Shown piece after piece: positions 2,076 to 11,686 of a stretch of 64,000 bases of DNA; position 1 is the first letter of the stretch; the number at the start of each line of letters is the position of its first letter. The DNA lies in the NCBI GenBank assembly GCA_963709405.1, contig CAVPXM010000055.1, positions 32,001 through 96,000 on the forward strand. Direction: 5' to 3'. The translations under genes and the position numbers were made by a program. The notes beneath the pieces were generated by a model, which made no database searches, was not told the DNA's origin, and saw nothing but the letters and a program-made list of their open reading frames with translations. Origin of the DNA: an uncultured Nitrososphaerales archaeon (lineage in GTDB: Archaea; Thermoproteota; Nitrososphaeria; Nitrososphaerales; Nitrososphaeraceae).

Positions 2076-2875
2076 TTATCTAAAATATTCTGAAGATATG
2101 CTGTCAAAGAGTAGCTTACCCGAAACTACGATTAGCGAAATCGAAAGCAACCTGACGAGAAGAGTGTCGCTCACATATCTTGACAAATTCGCACCTATTT
2201 GCGCTCCAATAACTGACCCTATTGAGAGAAAAATTGCAGGTAGATATTCTGGATGGCCCAAAGAGATGTGGACAACATTTCCAACTATGGATGTTATTAG
2301 CAGCGAAAACTGCGACGTCGCAGCCACTGTACTCATTGTTAAATTCAAAACTACAAGCATTAATGGCACAAAAATTATCCCTCCCCCGATTCCAAACAAA
2401 CTAGAGACTAATCCAGTCTGCTAGACAACCAGCGCTCAATATGAGGTTTCCAGTTCTCTTGTTGTAGGTACTAGGATATCCTTTGATATCTCCTTTCCTT
2501 CCTATATTATTTCTTACCCAAAGATATATACCAGTTAGAAACAAAATAATAGCAAAATACATCTTGAATTGCCCTAATGGCAGAATTGAAGATAACATGG
2601 CACCTATTGCGAGCGCCAGGTATGGCAAATGATGCCATTCGTATCCCTAGACGGTACTTTATTTTCCCTTGTCTTGAATAAGCAATAGTAGAAGAAAGAG
2701 ACGTGGACGACACTGATATCAAACTAGTACTGGAAATTTGGGCGGGATTAAGACCCATGAACGTCAATACAGGCGAGATGATGATGCCACCGCCAACCCC
2801 CACCATCGCTCCCACTATTCCTGCAGCTGTTCCTATAACGATCATTACAATAATTTGTTCAATCAAATAATCCAC
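2076..2875 (-). CDS. TauE/SafE family sulfite exporter, split over three ORFs by two frameshifts
   Basis: Twin G-x-GGG-I-I motifs (GVGGGIIISPVL and GIGGGIIFVPLM), hydrophobic TM segments, GAQIGA; ORFs 2507-2875, 2401-2628 and 2076-2399 are consecutive parts. Confidence 0.8.
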
Positions 2876-5534: not shown

Positions 5535-6218
5535 ATTTTCCTTATGCCGTAGCATTCTTTGTTAAGGTGTTCAAATGAATAATTATTATTTTTTGGATAA
5601 ATCAATCTTTCCGTCGTTTTCACCAAAGGTTGTTAACTTTGTATACGTCCCTCTGATCCTTTTTCAAATTTACTTACCGATTTTAAGATCGAATCGTAAG
5701 GGCGGCAATGCGACTGATTGTTTTTTTGCGGATTTTCTTGCAGGAGAATTTTTGTAGGTGCTTCTAGATATGTCGTACCATTGATTTATGCCGGTGCACA
5801 ATCTATATCTCACCGAATTAAGGACTAACATTAAGCCAAAGTAACAATTATTGATGTTATCATCATCAATCTTGTACTTGAAAATCTCTCGAAAGCGTGG
5901 CAGGTATTTATCGACAAATCGCTGTCCCCACTATTGCCAGTACAGTTCCACTGAAATCGATTATGACCCTGCCTCATTGTTCAATACCTTTATGTCTGGA
6001 AGGATTTTAAGTAGGCCGTCGGTACAATACCGTAACTTCTTATCATCTATACGATAAAAATCTGTATTACATGTCTCACTGTTCGCCGTTTTATTGTCCT
6101 TCTTTTAACTACTCCTCAAGACGGCTAATCCATACTGCATCCAAAGGTTAGCCTCGATCTGCTGTGAAAAGATCAGTGGATACGCTAACTTTATTTACTT
6201 CGTATTGAAGCCTAGGAT

Positions 6219-8018
6219 ATGGATTTACAGTCAGTATCATCATTAAAATTCGCAGGTAAGAATGTTCTAATCACGGGTAGCGGGACGGGCATTGGGCAGA
6301 CGATAGCATGCAAATTTGCCGAAGAGGGCGCAACTATCGTTATAATGGGCAGAAGAAGGGAACCGTTAGACTATACTACTAGTATTTTAGAAAAGTTAAT
6401 CAAATCATCCTCCTCAGGAGCTAAAGTACTTTCATTTCCAGGCATAGATGTGTCTGATGAAATTGGCATAAAGGGCATGTTCGAAGTAATCAAGAAACAG
6501 CTGGGTAAAATTGACATCGTGATCAACAACGCTGGTGTGTCTGGGCCGGTTAAAATCTTCCCCAGCTCAACGTTCAATGAATTCCGTGATTGTGTGTCGA
6601 TTCATTTGTCAGGAAGTTTTTGGACCTGTCAACATGCTATCCCAATTATGGAGAAGGGTGGAAAGATAATTACAATATCAACTTACTTTACGGAAGAAAA
6701 CCGCTTTGAACAAAGGCCATACAGGTTCCGAACCCCTTATACAGCCGCACAAGGAGCCAAGAATAGACTTGGTGAGGCCCTAGGATGGGAATTAACTGAT
6801 AGGGGAATCACTTCGATCGTTACGAACCCTGGCCCGGTACACTCTGATAGGATTTACAAAACAGTATACCCAAAGGCTGCAATGGAGTTCTTGAGAATCA
6901 GCGGCTATCCTGGCTTAACACCCTTAGAAATTGGCTCTCATTCGGAGAAGTTTTTTTCGCTTATGGGCGAGCCTCAAGATGTAATCGCTTCTGGTCTAAA
7001 GGAACTAAGTTTGGAGATCTTGGGAACCAGAAATGATCGGTGCGCAAGTTTGGAATCGCTAAAAGTAACTTTATTAGGTTTAATAAACAAGACTCAAGAG
7101 ATAGCTGAAAAGATTCAGAGTAATACTAGAAAGATGATTTCTGACGGAGAATTCCTTACTCAGGATCAAGTGGCAGAGATGGTATTGTTTCTTGCTGATG
7201 ACAAGATGAGCAAGCTATTGAATAGCCGAGTCATACCAAATGATCGTGTATTCTATCCTGTGAAACCTATAGTAGGATCGTCGGTCCGTCGTAGCAACGA
7301 TCAATTAACCTTAAAGGATAAAGTTATAGTTATTACTACAAATTCTCAACGAGAAAAGGAAATTTTACGTGTACGTGGACTAGCAACCACATTGCTTGGA
7401 TACGGTGTGAAACAGGTTGTCATCCTTTCCTCAGCGAACCACGCAGAATTAAAGGAGTTTCATACGCACTCAATTGATTATTTAAATGATAGGACTATTC
7501 AAAGGCTACTAGATTTGGTGAAAACGAGATTTGGCCAGATAGATGCCTTAGTTCATTTTACTGGAGACTTTGATTACAATTGTCCCCTATTATCTTTTCA
7601 AAGACATGAGTGGCAGTCTCTGGTTGACAATTATATAAACATACCCTACTTGATGATAAAAGGAGCGGTAAGTTCGATGTCAGCTAGCGGTGCAGCGGAA
7701 GTCCCGTCGAAATTTAGATCCTCGAGCGGAACTATCGTAATTGTAGGTCCAGATGCGCCCACTGGCAGGGTTTCAGGGCTCGTAAGGGCTAGATCTGAGG
7801 TATTTCGGGGTGCGCTTAGGCCTCTTGTTACTACGATTAATCAGGAGCTTTCTGATGTCCTAAACTCTTCTATAAGATCCTTTCTGATCCTGGCAGGCAG
7901 CATCGATGGACGGGAGCCGGATGAGCCGAATCTGAAACAATCAATAGTGAGCTTGATTACAGGTCCGGCAGAATATAGTGAACGAATTTTCTATATAGAT
8001 GAAGCGAAATCCAAGTAA
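6219..8018 (+). CDS. tandem-domain SDR oxidoreductase resembling the C-terminal module of malonyl-CoA reductase
   Basis: TGSGTGIG, NNAG, PYRFRTPY, PGPVHSDRI, a helical insert and a second degenerate SDR domain. Confidence 0.8.
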   Translation: MDLQSVSSLKFAGKNVLITGSGTGIGQTIACKFAEEGATIVIMGRRREPLDYTTSILEKLIKSSSSGAKVLSFPGIDVSDEIGIKGMFEVIKKQLGKIDIVINNAGVSGPVKIFPSSTFNEFRDCVSIHLSGSFWTCQHAIPIMEKGGKIITISTYFTEENRFEQRPYRFRTPYTAAQGAKNRLGEALGWELTDRGITSIVTNPGPVHSDRIYKTVYPKAAMEFLRISGYPGLTPLEIGSHSEKFFSLMGEPQDVIASGLKELSLEILGTRNDRCASLESLKVTLLGLINKTQEIAEKIQSNTRKMISDGEFLTQDQVAEMVLFLADDKMSKLLNSRVIPNDRVFYPVKPIVGSSVRRSNDQLTLKDKVIVITTNSQREKEILRVRGLATTLLGYGVKQVVILSSANHAELKEFHTHSIDYLNDRTIQRLLDLVKTRFGQIDALVHFTGDFDYNCPLLSFQRHEWQSLVDNYINIPYLMIKGAVSSMSASGAAEVPSKFRSSSGTIVIVGPDAPTGRVSGLVRARSEVFRGALRPLVTTINQELSDVLNSSIRSFLILAGSIDGREPDEPNLKQSIVSLITGPAEYSERIFYIDEAKSK

Positions 8019-8445: not shown

Positions 8446-9282
8446 TTACGTACCTATTCTAAAATTCTTAGATGCAGATGAGCGCACCGATTCAATTGCA
8501 GAAAGAATTGCCAGGAAGCTTGTTTTTGGATTTCCAGGTGCTTGATTATTCCGTAGTTTAATATTTAACATGCCGAAGCTCCCTTTGGCTATAATCTGAT
8601 GCTGGTTTTGATGAAGCATAGGGTCTGCGATTATCCTAACCATAGTCCTATTCATTCCGATTCCTGCTAAAGCTAAGAGTGATGAAACATTTACATTTAA
8701 AGGAAAATTGACAATTGCATCAGCAGCTGATCCTTGAAAAAGCACAGTTTTCTGAGTTATGGATTCTAGTTTGATCCCACTCTTCTCGAAAAAGGGAGCT
8801 CCCTCCAATGCTTTTGGATTTTTCGTCGTTATGAGAAGGACAGAATCAAGAACATTCCTGATGCTTCGTATGGCATCTATGCCTGCTATCGCCCCTGTCG
8901 GCAGTGACAGGTTCGCATGGTTTTTCTCCAAAGATGTCAAGAGTTCAGACAATAACCGATCATCAACCAATGCACCAACACTCATTATTATTAGATCTTT
9001 TCCCAAATCGAGTAGTCTCCTCCCGAACAATCGGACAGCAGATTGGGAAGCGCTCTCCAGAACGATATTACATGTCTTGAATTCACTAGACGAAATCAAA
9101 TTGGAAAAATCTGAAAAGCATCCAATGCTAGAATTCCTTAATTTGCTTGCGAGACCTTCAGCTGCAGCCTTATTCATGTCAAACAAGAATACAAGTGCGG
9201 TATCCCCTACCTTAGCATCATCTATCGCTAACGCAACCTGAGTTCCTATGGCCCCACAACCTAGTATCCCCACCTTTTTCAA
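8446..9282 (-). CDS. nadX: L-aspartate dehydrogenase (NAD biosynthesis)
   Basis: GCGAIG, ESASQSAV, MSVGAL, GAIAGIDAI, FPLNVNV, NPKTS.LA; near nadA and nadC. Confidence 0.9.
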   Translation of the reverse strand: MKKVGILGCGAIGTQVALAIDDAKVGDTALVFLFDMNKAAAEGLASKLRNSSIGCFSDFSNLISSSEFKTCNIVLESASQSAVRLFGRRLLDLGKDLIIMSVGALVDDRLLSELLTSLEKNHANLSLPTGAIAGIDAIRSIRNVLDSVLLITTKNPKALEGAPFFEKSGIKLESITQKTVLFQGSAADAIVNFPLNVNVSSLLALAGIGMNRTMVRIIADPMLHQNQHQIIAKGSFGMLNIKLRNNQAPGNPKTSFLAILSAIESVRSSASKNFRIGT

Positions 9283-9404
9283 TACTCAATTAATTAAGTA
9301 ACATAGGAGTACATATAACTGTAGCCGGATGAATACTTAATTAAATTGTCACCATAGTGACTCTAGTGTTTAATCGTAATTCGTTCCTACCAAAAATAGT
9401 AGTG

Positions 9405-9602
9405 CTATCTTCTTCCACCTCTTCCACCTCTTCCACCCCTTTCTGGCTTTCTTTGTCCTGGCAATCTTCTCTTTTCGAAACGCTTTTCGAAGTTGTTCTT
9501 GTTACGTAGCCTAGAAACAGGGTGTAATCGTACTTTGCCTTGAATCTTGGGTGTCTGACCTCTAACTTTTCCTGCTTTCGTTAGCGAGCCATGAGTTGGC
9601 AT
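9405..9602 (-). CDS. rps30e: 30S ribosomal protein S30e
   Basis: [20 protein letters not shown] signature. Confidence 0.95.
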
Positions 9603-9777
9603 GTAATTATCTAGCTATAAATGATTATTCTACGCCTAATATACGTTCCCCTCTATGTCAAACGGCGATAGAGAAAAAGGGGCAATCATTGCCAAATGTA
9701 GCGATAAAACAGGCAATGTAATGCCAGATTATATTAATTTAAATGCTGTTTTATATATAAATACGGTCACCAGAAAC

Positions 9778-10728
9778 ATGTCTGTCCTTGTTAATGAATA
9801 TAAACTTAGAATTGAAGAACTAAAAAAGCAAAGAGGCGCAACCATTTTAGCTCATAATTATCAGCTACCTGATATTCAAGATATTGCTGACTTCGTTGGA
9901 GATTCTTTGGGCCTTTCTAACAAAGCTGCTAAGACAGATAAAGAAACGATAGTGTTTTGCGGAGTACATTTTATGGCAGAAACGGCATCAATTATTTGTC
10001 CCGATAAACAGGTCTTAATTCCTGATCTTGAAGCAGGATGCTCATTAGCCTCTACTATTGATATCGGTCAACTGCAATCATGGAAATCTGAACATAAGGA
10101 TGCAGTGGTGGTAAGCTACGTCAACACTAGCGCGGACATTAAAGCCATGTCCGATTATTGTTGTACGTCTAGCAATGCGGTGAAGGTAGTGAATAGTATA
10201 CCGAAGGATCGGGAAGTTCTTTTTCTTCCAGACATGTTTCTAGGAGCATACGTAGCAGACGTGACTAAGCGTAAGAATATGTTTATCTGGCCAGGAGAGT
10301 GCCATGTGCACGCGGGAATTAGAGCCGAGGACGTTAACAAGATGTTAGCGAAGTTCAAAGATGCGGAGTTCCTTATCCATCCAGAATGTGGTTGCACATC
10401 TTCAGCTTTATATCATAGTTCGAATGGCGATATATCAAAGAATCCACTCGTTCTTTCCACAGAAGGAATGATGAAACATGCCAGCATGTCAACGGCCACA
10501 AATTATGTCATTGCGACAGAAGTAGGCATCTTGTACAGAATGGCCAAAGAAAATCCAACCAAGACATTTATTCCTATTAAGGAGGATGCAGTATGCAAAT
10601 ACATGAAAATGATAACCCTTGAGAAGGTTCATGATTCCCTCACAAGGAACGTTTATCGTGTGAAGGTGCCGCAAAAAATTGCTGACAAGGCAAGATTAGC
10701 GATCGATCGAATGATGCAACTTAGTTGA
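9778..10728 (+). CDS. nadA: quinolinate synthase
   Basis: ILAHNYQ, GDSL, FCGVHFMAETA, AGCSLA, YVNTSA, GECHVH, HPEC, CKYMKMITL; ATG 9778 follows a TATA box (ttatatataaa). Confidence 0.93.
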   Translation: MSVLVNEYKLRIEELKKQRGATILAHNYQLPDIQDIADFVGDSLGLSNKAAKTDKETIVFCGVHFMAETASIICPDKQVLIPDLEAGCSLASTIDIGQLQSWKSEHKDAVVVSYVNTSADIKAMSDYCCTSSNAVKVVNSIPKDREVLFLPDMFLGAYVADVTKRKNMFIWPGECHVHAGIRAEDVNKMLAKFKDAEFLIHPECGCTSSALYHSSNGDISKNPLVLSTEGMMKHASMSTATNYVIATEVGILYRMAKENPTKTFIPIKEDAVCKYMKMITLEKVHDSLTRNVYRVKVPQKIADKARLAIDRMMQLS

Positions 10729-10819
10729 GAATTCCCACACCAGCTGGATAATGTTAAAGGGTTTTTTGAAAATGCGAGAGTAATACAAAGAACATCTCTA
10801 ATTTTTTGTGGCATTGTTA

Positions 10820-11686
10820 TTAGCTCACGATTTTCAGACTGTAATCTACAGCCTTTGCTGAATGAGTAAGATAACCAACAGAGATCGTGTCAGGTTTAGC
10901 TCTTGCGTAGTCCTTGATATTTGATAAACTAATGCCTCCCGAAATTTCTATATTAGAATTGTTTCTAATTCCCATTCTTGTAATCATATCAATTGCATCC
11001 TTTGCATCCTGCGGTTGAAAATTGTCTAACATTACAGTATCTGCTCCTTCACGAATAGCAACGATCAGATCATGCATGTTTGTTACTTCACATTCTATTT
11101 TGACTTTAGACCCACATTTCTTCTTCAATTCACGTATACAGCAAGATACTGACCCCTCGATGCGAACGTGATTGTTTTTGATTAAGACCATGTCATCGAG
11201 TCGTTGCCGGTGCATGATTCCTCCTCCGATCATAACCGCTTTCTTATCAAATATTCGCAATCCCGGACACGTTTTTCTGGTACTGCTAATCTTGGTCCGA
11301 CTGCCTGTATCTCTCACGGCTGATATCAATTTTTTGGTTTCCGTTGCAATTCCACTCATTCGCATCAATAAATTCAATGCCGTTCTTTCGCCCTTCAATA
11401 TATCCTTAGCCTGTCCCTCGATCTCCATAATCGCCTGACCTCTCTTAACCAAGGAGCCGTCCTTAACCAAGCTCCGTACGTTGCAGTTACACATATCAAA
11501 GATAACATTAGCTTCATTTATTCCACCAGCTACAATCTCATCGTGTGACTTTGCAATGATTTCAGCGCGTACATTGAGATTTCTTGATGCAAGATTATTC
11601 GTTGTTATGTCTCCAGATCCAATATCTTCGTGTAGGAAATCCGAAAGTAATTGCCGCGCTTTTAAAGAAGTATGAATGACTGTCAT
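10820..11686 (-). CDS. nadC: nicotinate-nucleotide pyrophosphorylase (carboxylating)
   Basis: EDIGSGDITT, GERTALN, STRKTCPG, HRQRLDD, MLDN, SGGI, SVGYLTHSA. Confidence 0.93.
   Translation of the reverse strand: MTVIHTSLKARQLLSDFLHEDIGSGDITTNNLASRNLNVRAEIIAKSHDEIVAGGINEANVIFDMCNCNVRSLVKDGSLVKRGQAIMEIEGQAKDILKGERTALNLLMRMSGIATETKKLISAVRDTGSRTKISSTRKTCPGLRIFDKKAVMIGGGIMHRQRLDDMVLIKNNHVRIEGSVSCCIRELKKKCGSKVKIECEVTNMHDLIVAIREGADTVMLDNFQPQDAKDAIDMITRMGIRNNSNIEISGGISLSNIKDYARAKPDTISVGYLTHSAKAVDYSLKIVS

Follow-up and report, generated by a model that had tools for sequence, protein, structure and literature searches.

The window analysed here, 64,000 nucleotides of genomic DNA from an uncultured Nitrososphaerales archaeon, carries at positions 6219..8018 (+ strand, stop codon included) a gene for a 599-aa protein of the superfamily of short-chain dehydrogenases/reductases (SDR), which resembles the halves of bacterial bifunctional malonyl-CoA reductase (MCR) and which we consider a candidate for the reductase that acts on malonyl-CoA in the carbon-fixation cycle of ammonia-oxidizing archaea (AOA). 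The gene is an open reading frame (ORF) with an ATG start and ~680 bases of intergenic sequence upstream, and the opposite strand over the same interval is full of stops. The assembly from which the window derives (4.83 Mb in 100 contigs, 91% complete) contains archaeal amoA, which indicates that the source organism is an ammonia-oxidizing archaeon. It holds a single full-length copy of the SDR gene; 22 further hits belong to ordinary SDRs, whose similarity is confined to residues 6-223.

By Pfam, the protein belongs to generic SDR families only, with adh_short scoring 128.3 bits against a cut-off of 26.6 and a best stretch of residues 14-210. Its membership in the classical SDR superfamily follows from a Gly-rich cofactor motif, the NNAG motif, a catalytic Tyr and this score above the gathering threshold. 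With NCBIfam, each of the 25 best families stays below its curated cut-off (top score 121 bits vs 258), and the Pfam search found no Semialdhyde_dh domain in the protein. The ESM Atlas returned generic SDR names only, and the nearest non-archaeal cluster there consists of bacterial proteins of 1239 aa.

Domain layout, predicted fold and active-site residues

Three elements make up the protein: an SDR domain of the NADP type, ~97 aa of helical insert and another SDR-like domain, which lacks the cofactor motif. This layout was examined in an AlphaFold2 (AF2) model (mean predicted local distance difference test score, pLDDT, 87.3; predicted TM-score 0.88) built on alignment A1, which comprises 28 orthologs that are 47-82% identical to the window protein, 8 from a protein search and 20 translated from loci of other genomes of the class. 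The core of the catalytic SDR (Rossmann) domain, residues 14-210 (6258..6848, + strand), is delimited by the adh_short match and by the strands and helices of the model, in which the first SDR fold ends with a helix and a strand at 315-340. The insert, or 'lid', spans residues ~210-306 (6846..7136, + strand) and is modelled as helices at 210-228, 235-240, 242-248, 253-271 and 278-306; it aligns with long gaps to the lid of the C-terminal half of MCR (MCR-C), is unaligned against the N-terminal half (MCR-N), and is conserved among the orthologs. This insert opens with a helix like alpha10 of MCR-N and holds a G-x-P-G-L233 motif and an invariant K291..IAEK298.Q.NT..MI block. The second SDR-like domain, residues 365-599 (7311..8015, + strand), begins with KVIVITTNS, where the Gly-rich motif is absent, and is defined by its beta/alpha pattern in the model (369-592), by hhalign matches to the SDR4 and SDR2 domains of MCR and by whole-length Foldseek matches to the MCR halves. 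The ORF, Pfam and the model therefore bear out the original prediction, made from the DNA letters, of an SDR domain, a long helical insert and a degenerate second SDR domain within 599 aa.

The same prediction had proposed a fold comparison with MCR-C structures, in which unrelated SDRs at the top of the list would speak against it. In a Foldseek search of the PDB, the best 23 rows were all bacterial bifunctional MCR, with TM-scores normalised to the query (TMq) of 0.67-0.72 and E-values from 5.5e-29 to 1e-22. Among these, 18 rows are MCR-C (TMq 0.69-0.72; TM-score normalised to the target, TMt, 0.64-0.67; E from 5.5e-29), 3 are MCR-N (TMq 0.67-0.68; TMt 0.74; E about 2e-27) and 2 are full-length MCR (TMq 0.69-0.71; TMt 0.36-0.37; E 1.2e-27 and 1.0e-22). 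The next match is a single row for the tandem-SDR (di-SDR) protein yeast multifunctional enzyme 2 (MFE-2; 2et6; TMq 0.54, TMt 0.55, E 1.4e-19), and below it come single SDRs at TMq ~0.36, so that the prediction withstood this test. As in MCR-C, a catalytic SDR fold is followed on one chain by a non-catalytic one, both in the AF2 model and in the whole-length Foldseek matches.

The dinucleotide-binding motif T19-G-S-G-T-G-I-G26 (6273..6296, + strand) and G44-R45-R46 after strand 2 (6348..6356, + strand) are invariant in all 28 orthologs, and the latter is aligned with GR/AR in the HMMER alignment to MCR. In Roseiflexus MCR, Arg41 and Arg616 bind the 2′-phosphate of NADP (PMC10470521; papers are cited here and below from passages of their text). 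Because the Arg-Arg pair after strand 2 sits where these residues bind the 2′-phosphate, we infer that the window protein uses or prefers NADPH.

At the catalytic centre, the invariant T155 (6681..6683, + strand) is aligned to the Ser/Thr position of Roseiflexus MCR (Thr165 / Ser731). The substrate loop and active-site helix that follow, residues 157-181 (6687..6761, + strand; FTEE...EQRP-Y168-RF-R171-TP-Y174-TAA-Q178-GA-K181), are delimited by ortholog conservation and the alignments; they hold a YxxRxxY motif predicted to bind a carboxylate, the catalytic Tyr, a Gln that replaces the SDR Lys, and an invariant Lys three residues on. Within this stretch, loop 158-171 is probably mobile, since its pLDDT in the model is below 50. 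Farther on, P204-G-P-V-H-S209-D-R211-I-Y213 (6828..6857, + strand) contains the hairpin Arg after PGP: R211 is invariant and aligned to Chloroflexus Arg773 and Roseiflexus Arg785 of MCR-C and to Arg215 of MCR-N. Conservation extends well beyond these positions, as N103-N-A-G; T152, I153 and T155; E159-E160; Q165-R-P-Y168-R-F-R171; P173-Y174-T175; Q178-G-A-K181-N-R-L; N203-P-G-P-V-H-S209; R211-I-Y-K-T-V-Y-P-K-A-A221; and, in the insert block, K291, I295-A-E-K298, Q300, N302-T303 and M306-I307 are each invariant in 28 of 28 orthologs.

These residues can be set against those of characterised MCRs. Chloroflexus MCR-C Tyr731, Arg734, Tyr737, Lys741 and Arg773 correspond to Y168, R171, Y174, Q178 and R211 of the window protein, so that four of the five MCR-C residues important by mutagenesis are kept and the fifth, K741, is replaced by Gln (bioRxiv 10.1101/2023.03.21.533589). 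In the Chloroflexus enzyme, Tyr731, Arg734 and Arg773 variants are inactive and the lid domain closes on substrate binding (bioRxiv 10.1101/2023.03.21.533589). The retention of YxxRxxY with a Lys-to-Gln exchange, as originally predicted, was thus seen throughout the alignment. The motif had been described as the active-site arrangement of MCR-C, but it is not specific to that half: in Roseiflexus it is conserved in both SDR1 (Tyr172-Arg175-Tyr178) and SDR3 (Tyr743-Arg746-Tyr749), where it binds the carboxylate of malonate semialdehyde or malonyl-CoA (PMC10470521), and it therefore does not discriminate between the halves. Three other features are common to the window family and MCR-C only, namely a substrate loop ~6 residues longer than that of MCR-N (FTEE...RP in the window protein, aligned to FGGE...VP in MCR-C), an insert at the lid position, though not as long as the lid of MCR-C, and the PGL motif, the Leu of which (Leu795 in Roseiflexus) is reported to bind CoA (PMC10470521). 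As to the features that define MCR-N, the window protein has the alpha10 helix with Ser213 and Arg215 (H-S209-D-R211-I-Y is aligned to ESERIY / ESDRI), but departs from the Thr-Tyr-Lys triad, the short loop and the missing lid in that its Lys is replaced, its loop is longer and the insert is present.

The loss of the YxxxK Lys might suggest a catalytically dead, SDR-like scaffold or regulator. We regard this as highly improbable, as the cofactor motif, T155, Y174, the substrate loop and R211 have stayed invariant across proteins of 47-82% overall identity, and the Y...Q..K arrangement is kept in distant bacterial modules. It is a guess that K181 compensates for the lost triad Lys.

A third lineage of MCR-type modules

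The original prediction described the protein as a stand-alone homolog of the C-terminal half of Chloroflexus MCR. The protein is indeed MCR-like and of di-SDR build, and its insert sits where MCR-C has its lid, but its assignment to the C half is not supported, given near-equal scores, a separate clade and the tests of tree topology described below. The motif pairs with Chloroflexus MCR-C on which the assignment had drawn were recovered in part: the first four can be seen in the HMMER alignment to MCR 571-777 (8hjw), whereas for YGVKQVVIL~YGARQVVMI the only such alignment is a stretch that lacks significance (score -1.0). In a profile-profile alignment, the YGVKQVVIL pair and TIVIVGPD match the corresponding MCR-C positions of P0157, a 1229-aa MCR homolog, and not those of Chloroflexus itself.

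By phmmer, the window protein scores 73.4 bits on the MCR-N side and 55.6 on the MCR-C side of Chloroflexus MCR (8hjw), the N-half match covering residues 10-219, and 61.9 and 62.7 bits, respectively, on Roseiflexus MCR (8hi4). A profile of the 28 orthologs gives 73.4 / 72.5 bits for MCR-N and 84.0 / 80.1 bits for MCR-C of 8hi4 / 8hjw, and hhalign against the halves of 17 canonical MCR-length proteins gives 314 for MCR-N (395 columns) and 293 for MCR-C (479 columns). The two halves are therefore nearly equal by Foldseek, family profile and hhalign, with the family profile and Foldseek slightly favouring MCR-C. We also tried hhalign of individual bacterial modules as a discriminator and set it aside: the first (d1) and second (d2) modules of non-canonical bacterial multi-domain proteins all gave the somewhat higher score with MCR-N, probably owing to the gap cost of the long MCR-C lid.

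A tree of the catalytic domain (82 rows, 212 columns) was built from 13 of the 28 archaeal sequences, every module covering query residues 20-195 from the long proteins of the cluster-representative search, and 12 ordinary SDRs as outgroup. It contains four supported clades, MCR-N (100), MCR-C (99), archaeal proteins with d1 modules (99) and d2 modules (98), whose branching order is a polytomy. The whole-module tree (62 rows, 580 columns) recovers the same four clades and joins the archaeal/d1 and d2 clades at an approximate likelihood-ratio support (SH-aLRT) of only 86; support for the archaeal and bacterial d1 clade is 99* in both trees. In neither tree is the archaeal family placed inside the MCR-C or the MCR-N clade. 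Approximately unbiased (AU) tests rejected neither a sister relationship to MCR-C (cost 6.3 log-likelihood units, p-AU 0.29) nor one to MCR-N (cost 6.7, p-AU 0.11). These results place the window protein in a third lineage of MCR-type modules, one that combines traits of the two halves, and orthology to either half is not demonstrable. All 13 archaeal rows and all 10 d1 rows of this clade have Y-x-x-x-Q-x-x-K, MCR-N, MCR-C and d2 keep YxxxK, and five other rows labelled d1, which fall in the MCR-N or outgroup clades, do not have the variant; at the level of sequence, the exchange of Lys for Gln with a Lys three residues later is a mark of the third clade.

Outside the archaea, the window protein has its nearest relative in one module of P0126 (5572 aa), with 36% identity across query residues 10-596, and the precomputed Pfam list of P0126 names AMP-binding, ECH_1/ECH_2 and SDR families. 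In P0132 (2552 aa), ADH_zinc_N and ECH are followed by d1 and d2 MCR-like modules; the P0132 cluster has a full-length member, P0292 (2579 aa), from a Deltaproteobacteria metagenome genome, and the related P0130 cluster has P0280 (2582 aa, JGI), likewise from a bacterial metagenome genome, together with partial members from Binatia and Deferrimicrobium submitted by different depositors. The partner domains have their match in propionyl-CoA synthase, which acts after MCR in the 3-hydroxypropionate route. By their domain content, the fusions link the lineage to 3-hydroxypropionate chemistry, without telling whether d1 or d2 is the module that releases CoA. Judging by record names, none of the d1 proteins has been characterised. 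The large proteins P0132, P0280, P0292, P0126, P0125 and P0144 could, from their domain content, be single-chain converters of malonyl-CoA to propionyl-CoA; P0144 is a protein of 6910 aa from a Chlamydiota metagenome genome.

The mixture of features leaves room for an enzyme that works like MCR-N, reducing succinate or malonate semialdehyde to the hydroxy acid with NADPH, or carrying out both malonyl-CoA reductions at one site. In SDR1, malonate semialdehyde is likewise bound by YxxRxxY and by the Arg that follows PGP (PMC10470521), the S209-D-R211-I-Y helix has the MCR-N form, and MCR-N is slightly ahead in the phmmer comparison with Chloroflexus and in hhalign. The smaller bacterial proteins P0131, P0134 and P0143 (~1100 aa) open with the archaeal-like module, at the position that the alcohol-forming half occupies in canonical MCR, and ~75 insert residues are missing from this module. 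Moreover, the succinic semialdehyde reductase of Nitrosopumilus maritimus was listed as unidentified in 2018 (PMC6038301). However, the conserved insert and longer loop, both MCR-C-like, exceed the needs of a C3-C4 aldehyde, N. maritimus reportedly has a separate malonic semialdehyde reductase (Otte et al. 2015, as cited elsewhere and in a KO entry), the window genome contains an Fe-ADH gene, and the family profile and Foldseek lean towards MCR-C. We therefore consider a semialdehyde reductase rather improbable.

Distribution among ammonia-oxidizing archaea and genomic context

In a survey of 400 other genomes of the class (matches at E <= 1e-30), the SDR gene was found in 77/78 genomes of family f1, 218/223 of f2, 10/10 of f3 and 4/4 of f5, and archaeal amoA (Pfam model) in 74/78, 214/223, 10/10 and 4/4, respectively. 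Summed over these four amoA-bearing families, the SDR gene is present in 309 of 315 genomes and amoA in 302; neither was found in any of 85 genomes of 16 other families of the class. The tallies include five unpublished genomes (G365, G132, G231, G327 and G283), all positive for both genes, and without them the counts are 304/310 and 297/310. Most of the genomes listed have one match, which spans nearly the whole query in the match rows listed, and five of the six f1/f2 genomes without a match are drafts of at least 90 contigs that are 89-97% complete. The proposed check for single-copy presence in AOA came out largely as anticipated, and the 599-aa SDR is a core gene of AOA, with the proviso that related genomes are not independent. 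Outside the class the family is rare, with 42 of 1.84 billion cluster representatives at E <= 1e-30, comprising archaeal clusters, fragments and bacterial fusion proteins.

Other reductase types were sought in the same organisms. Among 51 Nitrosopumilaceae genomes that are at least 95% complete, 38 yielded an Aldedh (PF00171) match (37/50 without the unpublished G401); the 13 in which none was found include several closed genomes, and all 13 carry the 599-aa SDR. Exactly two Semialdhyde_dh genes lie above the cut-off in each of 5 closed genomes, as in the window genome; these are presumably Asd and an ArgC/LysY-type enzyme, and no third, extra Asd-like paralog was found in the 5 closed genomes. 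NAD_binding_4, the fatty-acyl-CoA-reductase type, gave only weak hits of ~300-350 aa and none in one of the 5 closed genomes. If the missing enzyme is of a known acyl-CoA reductase type, the MCR-like SDR is therefore the only such type found in nearly all AOA genomes searched.

Two side observations concern the window assembly itself. Several of its aldehyde-dehydrogenase-family matches (contigs C31, C61, C76 and C83) are fragmented or contain in-frame stops. At 4.83 Mb it is also larger than other genomes of its family (1.4-3.9 Mb), and several SDR paralogs occur twice with identical scores on different contigs (C20/C41, C44/C18 and C54/C60); it may hold duplicated or two-strain material despite an estimated contamination of 3.7%.

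The neighbourhood was compared across 20 loci, the window and 19 others. The order of neighbours is kept across families, and the conserved genes encode a DNA ligase, a PhoU_div protein, a tRNA-intron endonuclease, a TauE exporter, a homoserine dehydrogenase, a PUA protein and a proteasome subunit, that is, housekeeping genes with no link to carbon fixation in the 20 loci. In 8 of 9 Nitrosopumilaceae loci, the SDR gene is directly followed, with overlapping stop and start, by a gene for a MaoC-like protein of 148-158 aa (for example L021:5546-6001, - strand, with matching places in L022-L027 and L036). The similarity of this protein to MaoC and hot-dog proteins is weak (PDB 1q6w, E 1.2e-4; Pfam MaoC_dehydratas in 1 of 8 members, E 0.02). 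A search for its gene was positive for 30 of 36 Nitrosopumilaceae genomes and for none of 64 genomes from non-AOA families; in the window genome the gene lies at G000:C54:28854-29315 (locus L037), unlinked to the SDR gene. We considered it as an obligate partner of the SDR and rejected it on account of this patchiness and lack of linkage. By our reading of alignment A2 against the hydratase-2 motif, the MaoC-like protein presumably lacks the catalytic Asp and His.

This context bears on the possibility that the 599-aa protein, as a reductase or dehydrogenase specific to AOA, acts on some other carboxylate-bearing substrate, a CoA ester or not, and is unrelated to the reductions of malonyl-CoA and succinyl-CoA; one variant would be an MFE-2-like hydroxyacyl-CoA dehydrogenase working with the adjacent MaoC-like protein of Nitrosopumilaceae. 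The protein has its own clade, so function cannot be transferred by orthology, its catalytic Lys is replaced, the best non-MCR fold match is the MFE-2 di-SDR, the MaoC-like gene directly follows the SDR gene in most Nitrosopumilaceae loci, and the remaining neighbours are housekeeping genes. We nevertheless hold such an enzyme to be unlikely, if worth keeping in mind: the malonyl-binding residues are kept in every ortholog, relatives are fused to enzymes of the 3-hydroxypropionate route, and the hot-dog gene, not found in 6 of 36 Nitrosopumilaceae genomes and unlinked in the window genome, is no obligate partner; by our own reading its product also lacks the hydratase-2 catalytic residues.

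RNA-library contigs cover parts of the SDR gene at 95-99% identity in four of four runs from three soil studies; they are unsuited to ranking expression, and hint weakly that the gene or a close relative's copy is transcribed. The intergenic bin 5782-6028 drew no RNA contig in the four runs, which proves nothing.

Two further features flank the gene in the window. The TauE/SafE-type exporter is split there into two ORFs, 2076-2399 (- strand) and 2507-2875 (- strand), found by tblastn in frames -3 and -1, and is a single ORF of ~252-261 aa adjoining the SDR gene in other AOA loci, which points to a frameshift, a pseudogene or an assembly error. Just downstream of the SDR gene lies an NAD biosynthesis cluster (8446-11686), consisting of aspartate dehydrogenase (8446-9282, - strand), quinolinate synthase NadA (9655-10728, + strand) and quinolinate phosphoribosyltransferase (10820-11686, - strand).

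Proposed function and comparison with known systems

The best reading of these data, which we put forward tentatively and at slightly less than even chance, is that the 599-aa protein is the NADPH-dependent malonyl-CoA, and perhaps also succinyl-CoA, reductase of the AOA carbon-fixation cycle. It is suggested by the fold, the conserved malonyl-binding residues, the near-universal presence in AOA, the absence of alternatives and the fusion partners of its relatives. The wider proposal, that the AOA reductase for malonyl-CoA (and succinyl-CoA) represents a third, previously unrecognised MCR-type lineage with a Tyr...Gln..Lys site that shares ancestry with modules of bacterial mega-enzymes, seems to us possible but somewhat more doubtful.

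The idea that this protein is the MCR of AOA is not new. Hallam et al. 2006 (PMC1403158) tentatively put forward as an MCR candidate an SDR of Cenarchaeum symbiosum whose N-terminal domain shares 32% identity with Chloroflexus MCR, and this SDR very probably belongs to the same family as the window protein. Activities of MCR and succinyl-CoA reductase were later reported in N. maritimus extracts with no gene assigned, and the genes for both acyl-CoA reductions were still listed as unidentified in 2018 (PMC6038301). According to a passage of a 2020 paper, the thaumarchaeal MCR cannot be identified (PMC6964070), and genomic marker sets of 2026 contain neither it nor a gene for the succinyl-CoA reduction (PMC12894919; bioRxiv 10.64898/2026.09.02.748891). 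A full-text literature search for malonyl-CoA or succinyl-CoA reductase together with Nitrosopumilus, ammonia-oxidizing archaea or Thaumarchaeota found no gene assignment in the titles, abstracts and passages that it covered. These sources agree with the starting premise that the AOA enzyme had no gene assigned to it.

By analogy with the solved MCR structures, a mechanism can be proposed in which the N-terminal SDR domain would bind NADPH and the mobile loop with Y168-R171-Y174, together with R211, would hold the free carboxylate of a malonyl-type substrate. T155 and Y174 would then serve hydride and proton transfer, the helical insert would cover the site as the lid does in MCR-C, with the second, cofactor-less SDR domain acting as a scaffold. 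Succinyl-CoA may also be reduced by the same enzyme. What the analysis itself shows is the fold, the residue conservation, the distribution and the domains to which relatives are fused; the substrate, cofactor, CoA-releasing chemistry and role in the cycle are predicted.

Several observations weigh against a malonyl-CoA reductase. The Ser-Tyr-Lys triad of MCR-C (Roseiflexus Ser731-Tyr749-Lys753) is incomplete, as T155 and Y174 are present and the Lys position is Gln in all orthologs; in Roseiflexus MCR, triad mutants, Lys included, have abolished or strongly lowered activity, and Lys-to-Ala mutants of both halves lose activity (PMC10470521). Malonyl-CoA is fixed there by Arg799 of the lid and Arg1164 of SDR4; the window protein has no Arg four residues after L233 (E237 is found there), in a stretch where the alignment is unreliable. 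The S-D-R-I-Y form of the helix after PGP (HSDRIYKTV) is common to MCR-N only, the Chloroflexus phmmer and hhalign scores are higher for MCR-N, the archaeal family falls outside the MCR-C clade, and the archaeal-like module of P0131, P0134 and P0143 stands in the N-terminal place without most of the insert. The neighbours are housekeeping genes, and many genes are AOA-specific, so co-distribution with amoA singles out no pathway. Lastly, no gene assignment was found in print despite a homology visible since 2006, which a purely hypothetical unpublished negative result would fit. The reading is weakened by the lost Lys and the polytomy among the clades, and the function is to be taken as a prediction.

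The question matters because AOA carry out much of the carbon fixation in the dark ocean and in soil, and a specific, near-universal candidate with conserved predicted substrate-binding residues makes the missing-gene question answerable. If the malonyl-CoA reductase reading is true, the gene would be a marker for the AOA pathway in metagenomes, its active site would be a new SDR variant of mechanistic interest, and the protein would offer a compact, 600-aa malonyl-CoA reductase for 3-hydroxypropionate engineering. On the wider proposal of a third lineage, the thaumarchaeal step would derive from the stock that also gave rise to the bacterial 3-hydroxypropionate enzymes, and not from that of the crenarchaeal ones.

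Among known systems, the malonyl-CoA/succinyl-CoA reductase of Sulfolobales, which belongs to the aspartate-semialdehyde-dehydrogenase family (KO K15017), would have the equivalent function in the crenarchaeal version of the cycle. Its fold is unrelated, however, and the window protein contains no Semialdhyde_dh domain, while the searched AOA genomes hold two such genes each. The (3R)-hydroxyacyl-CoA dehydrogenase of yeast MFE-2 also has tandem SDR domains on one chain and acts on CoA esters, but it is a far weaker match (TMq 0.54, root-mean-square deviation 19.5), and both of its domains match the catalytic-domain profile.

The closest relatives are the d1 modules of P0126, P0125 (5945 aa), P0132, the P0130 cluster, P0131, P0134, P0143 and P0144, which share the clade of the archaeal proteins, the Y-x-x-x-Q-x-x-K arrangement and the longer substrate loop; P0125 and P0126 are collinear with the window protein over its whole length, insert included. 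Unlike the archaeal proteins, they are fused to a d2 SDR module that has the canonical YxxxK, and some are joined to enoyl-CoA hydratase, enoyl reductase or AMP-binding ligase domains as well; most of the insert is absent from the smaller d1 proteins. MCR-N (SDR1-SDR2; PDB 8aew, 8hi6 and 6k8v) is likewise a di-SDR protein with YxxRxxY, Thr at the Ser/Thr position and an S-x-R-I helix after PGP, and has the higher TMt (0.74) and the higher Chloroflexus phmmer and hhalign scores, but it has neither a lid-like insert nor the substrate-loop insertion and it keeps YxxxK. MCR-C of Chloroflexus, Roseiflexus and Porphyrobacter (SDR3, lid or extra domain, SDR4; PDB 8a30, 8hi5 and 6k8s) differs from the window protein, which is a stand-alone protein in a separate clade with Gln for the triad Lys, a shorter insert, a helix after PGP of the MCR-N form and no Arg found at the place equivalent to Arg799. 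Nevertheless, the two have in common tandem SDR folds of which only the first has a cofactor motif, an insert after PGPxxxxR, the longer substrate loop, YxxRxxY, the hairpin Arg and the PGL motif, and it is MCR-C that gives the best Foldseek E-values.

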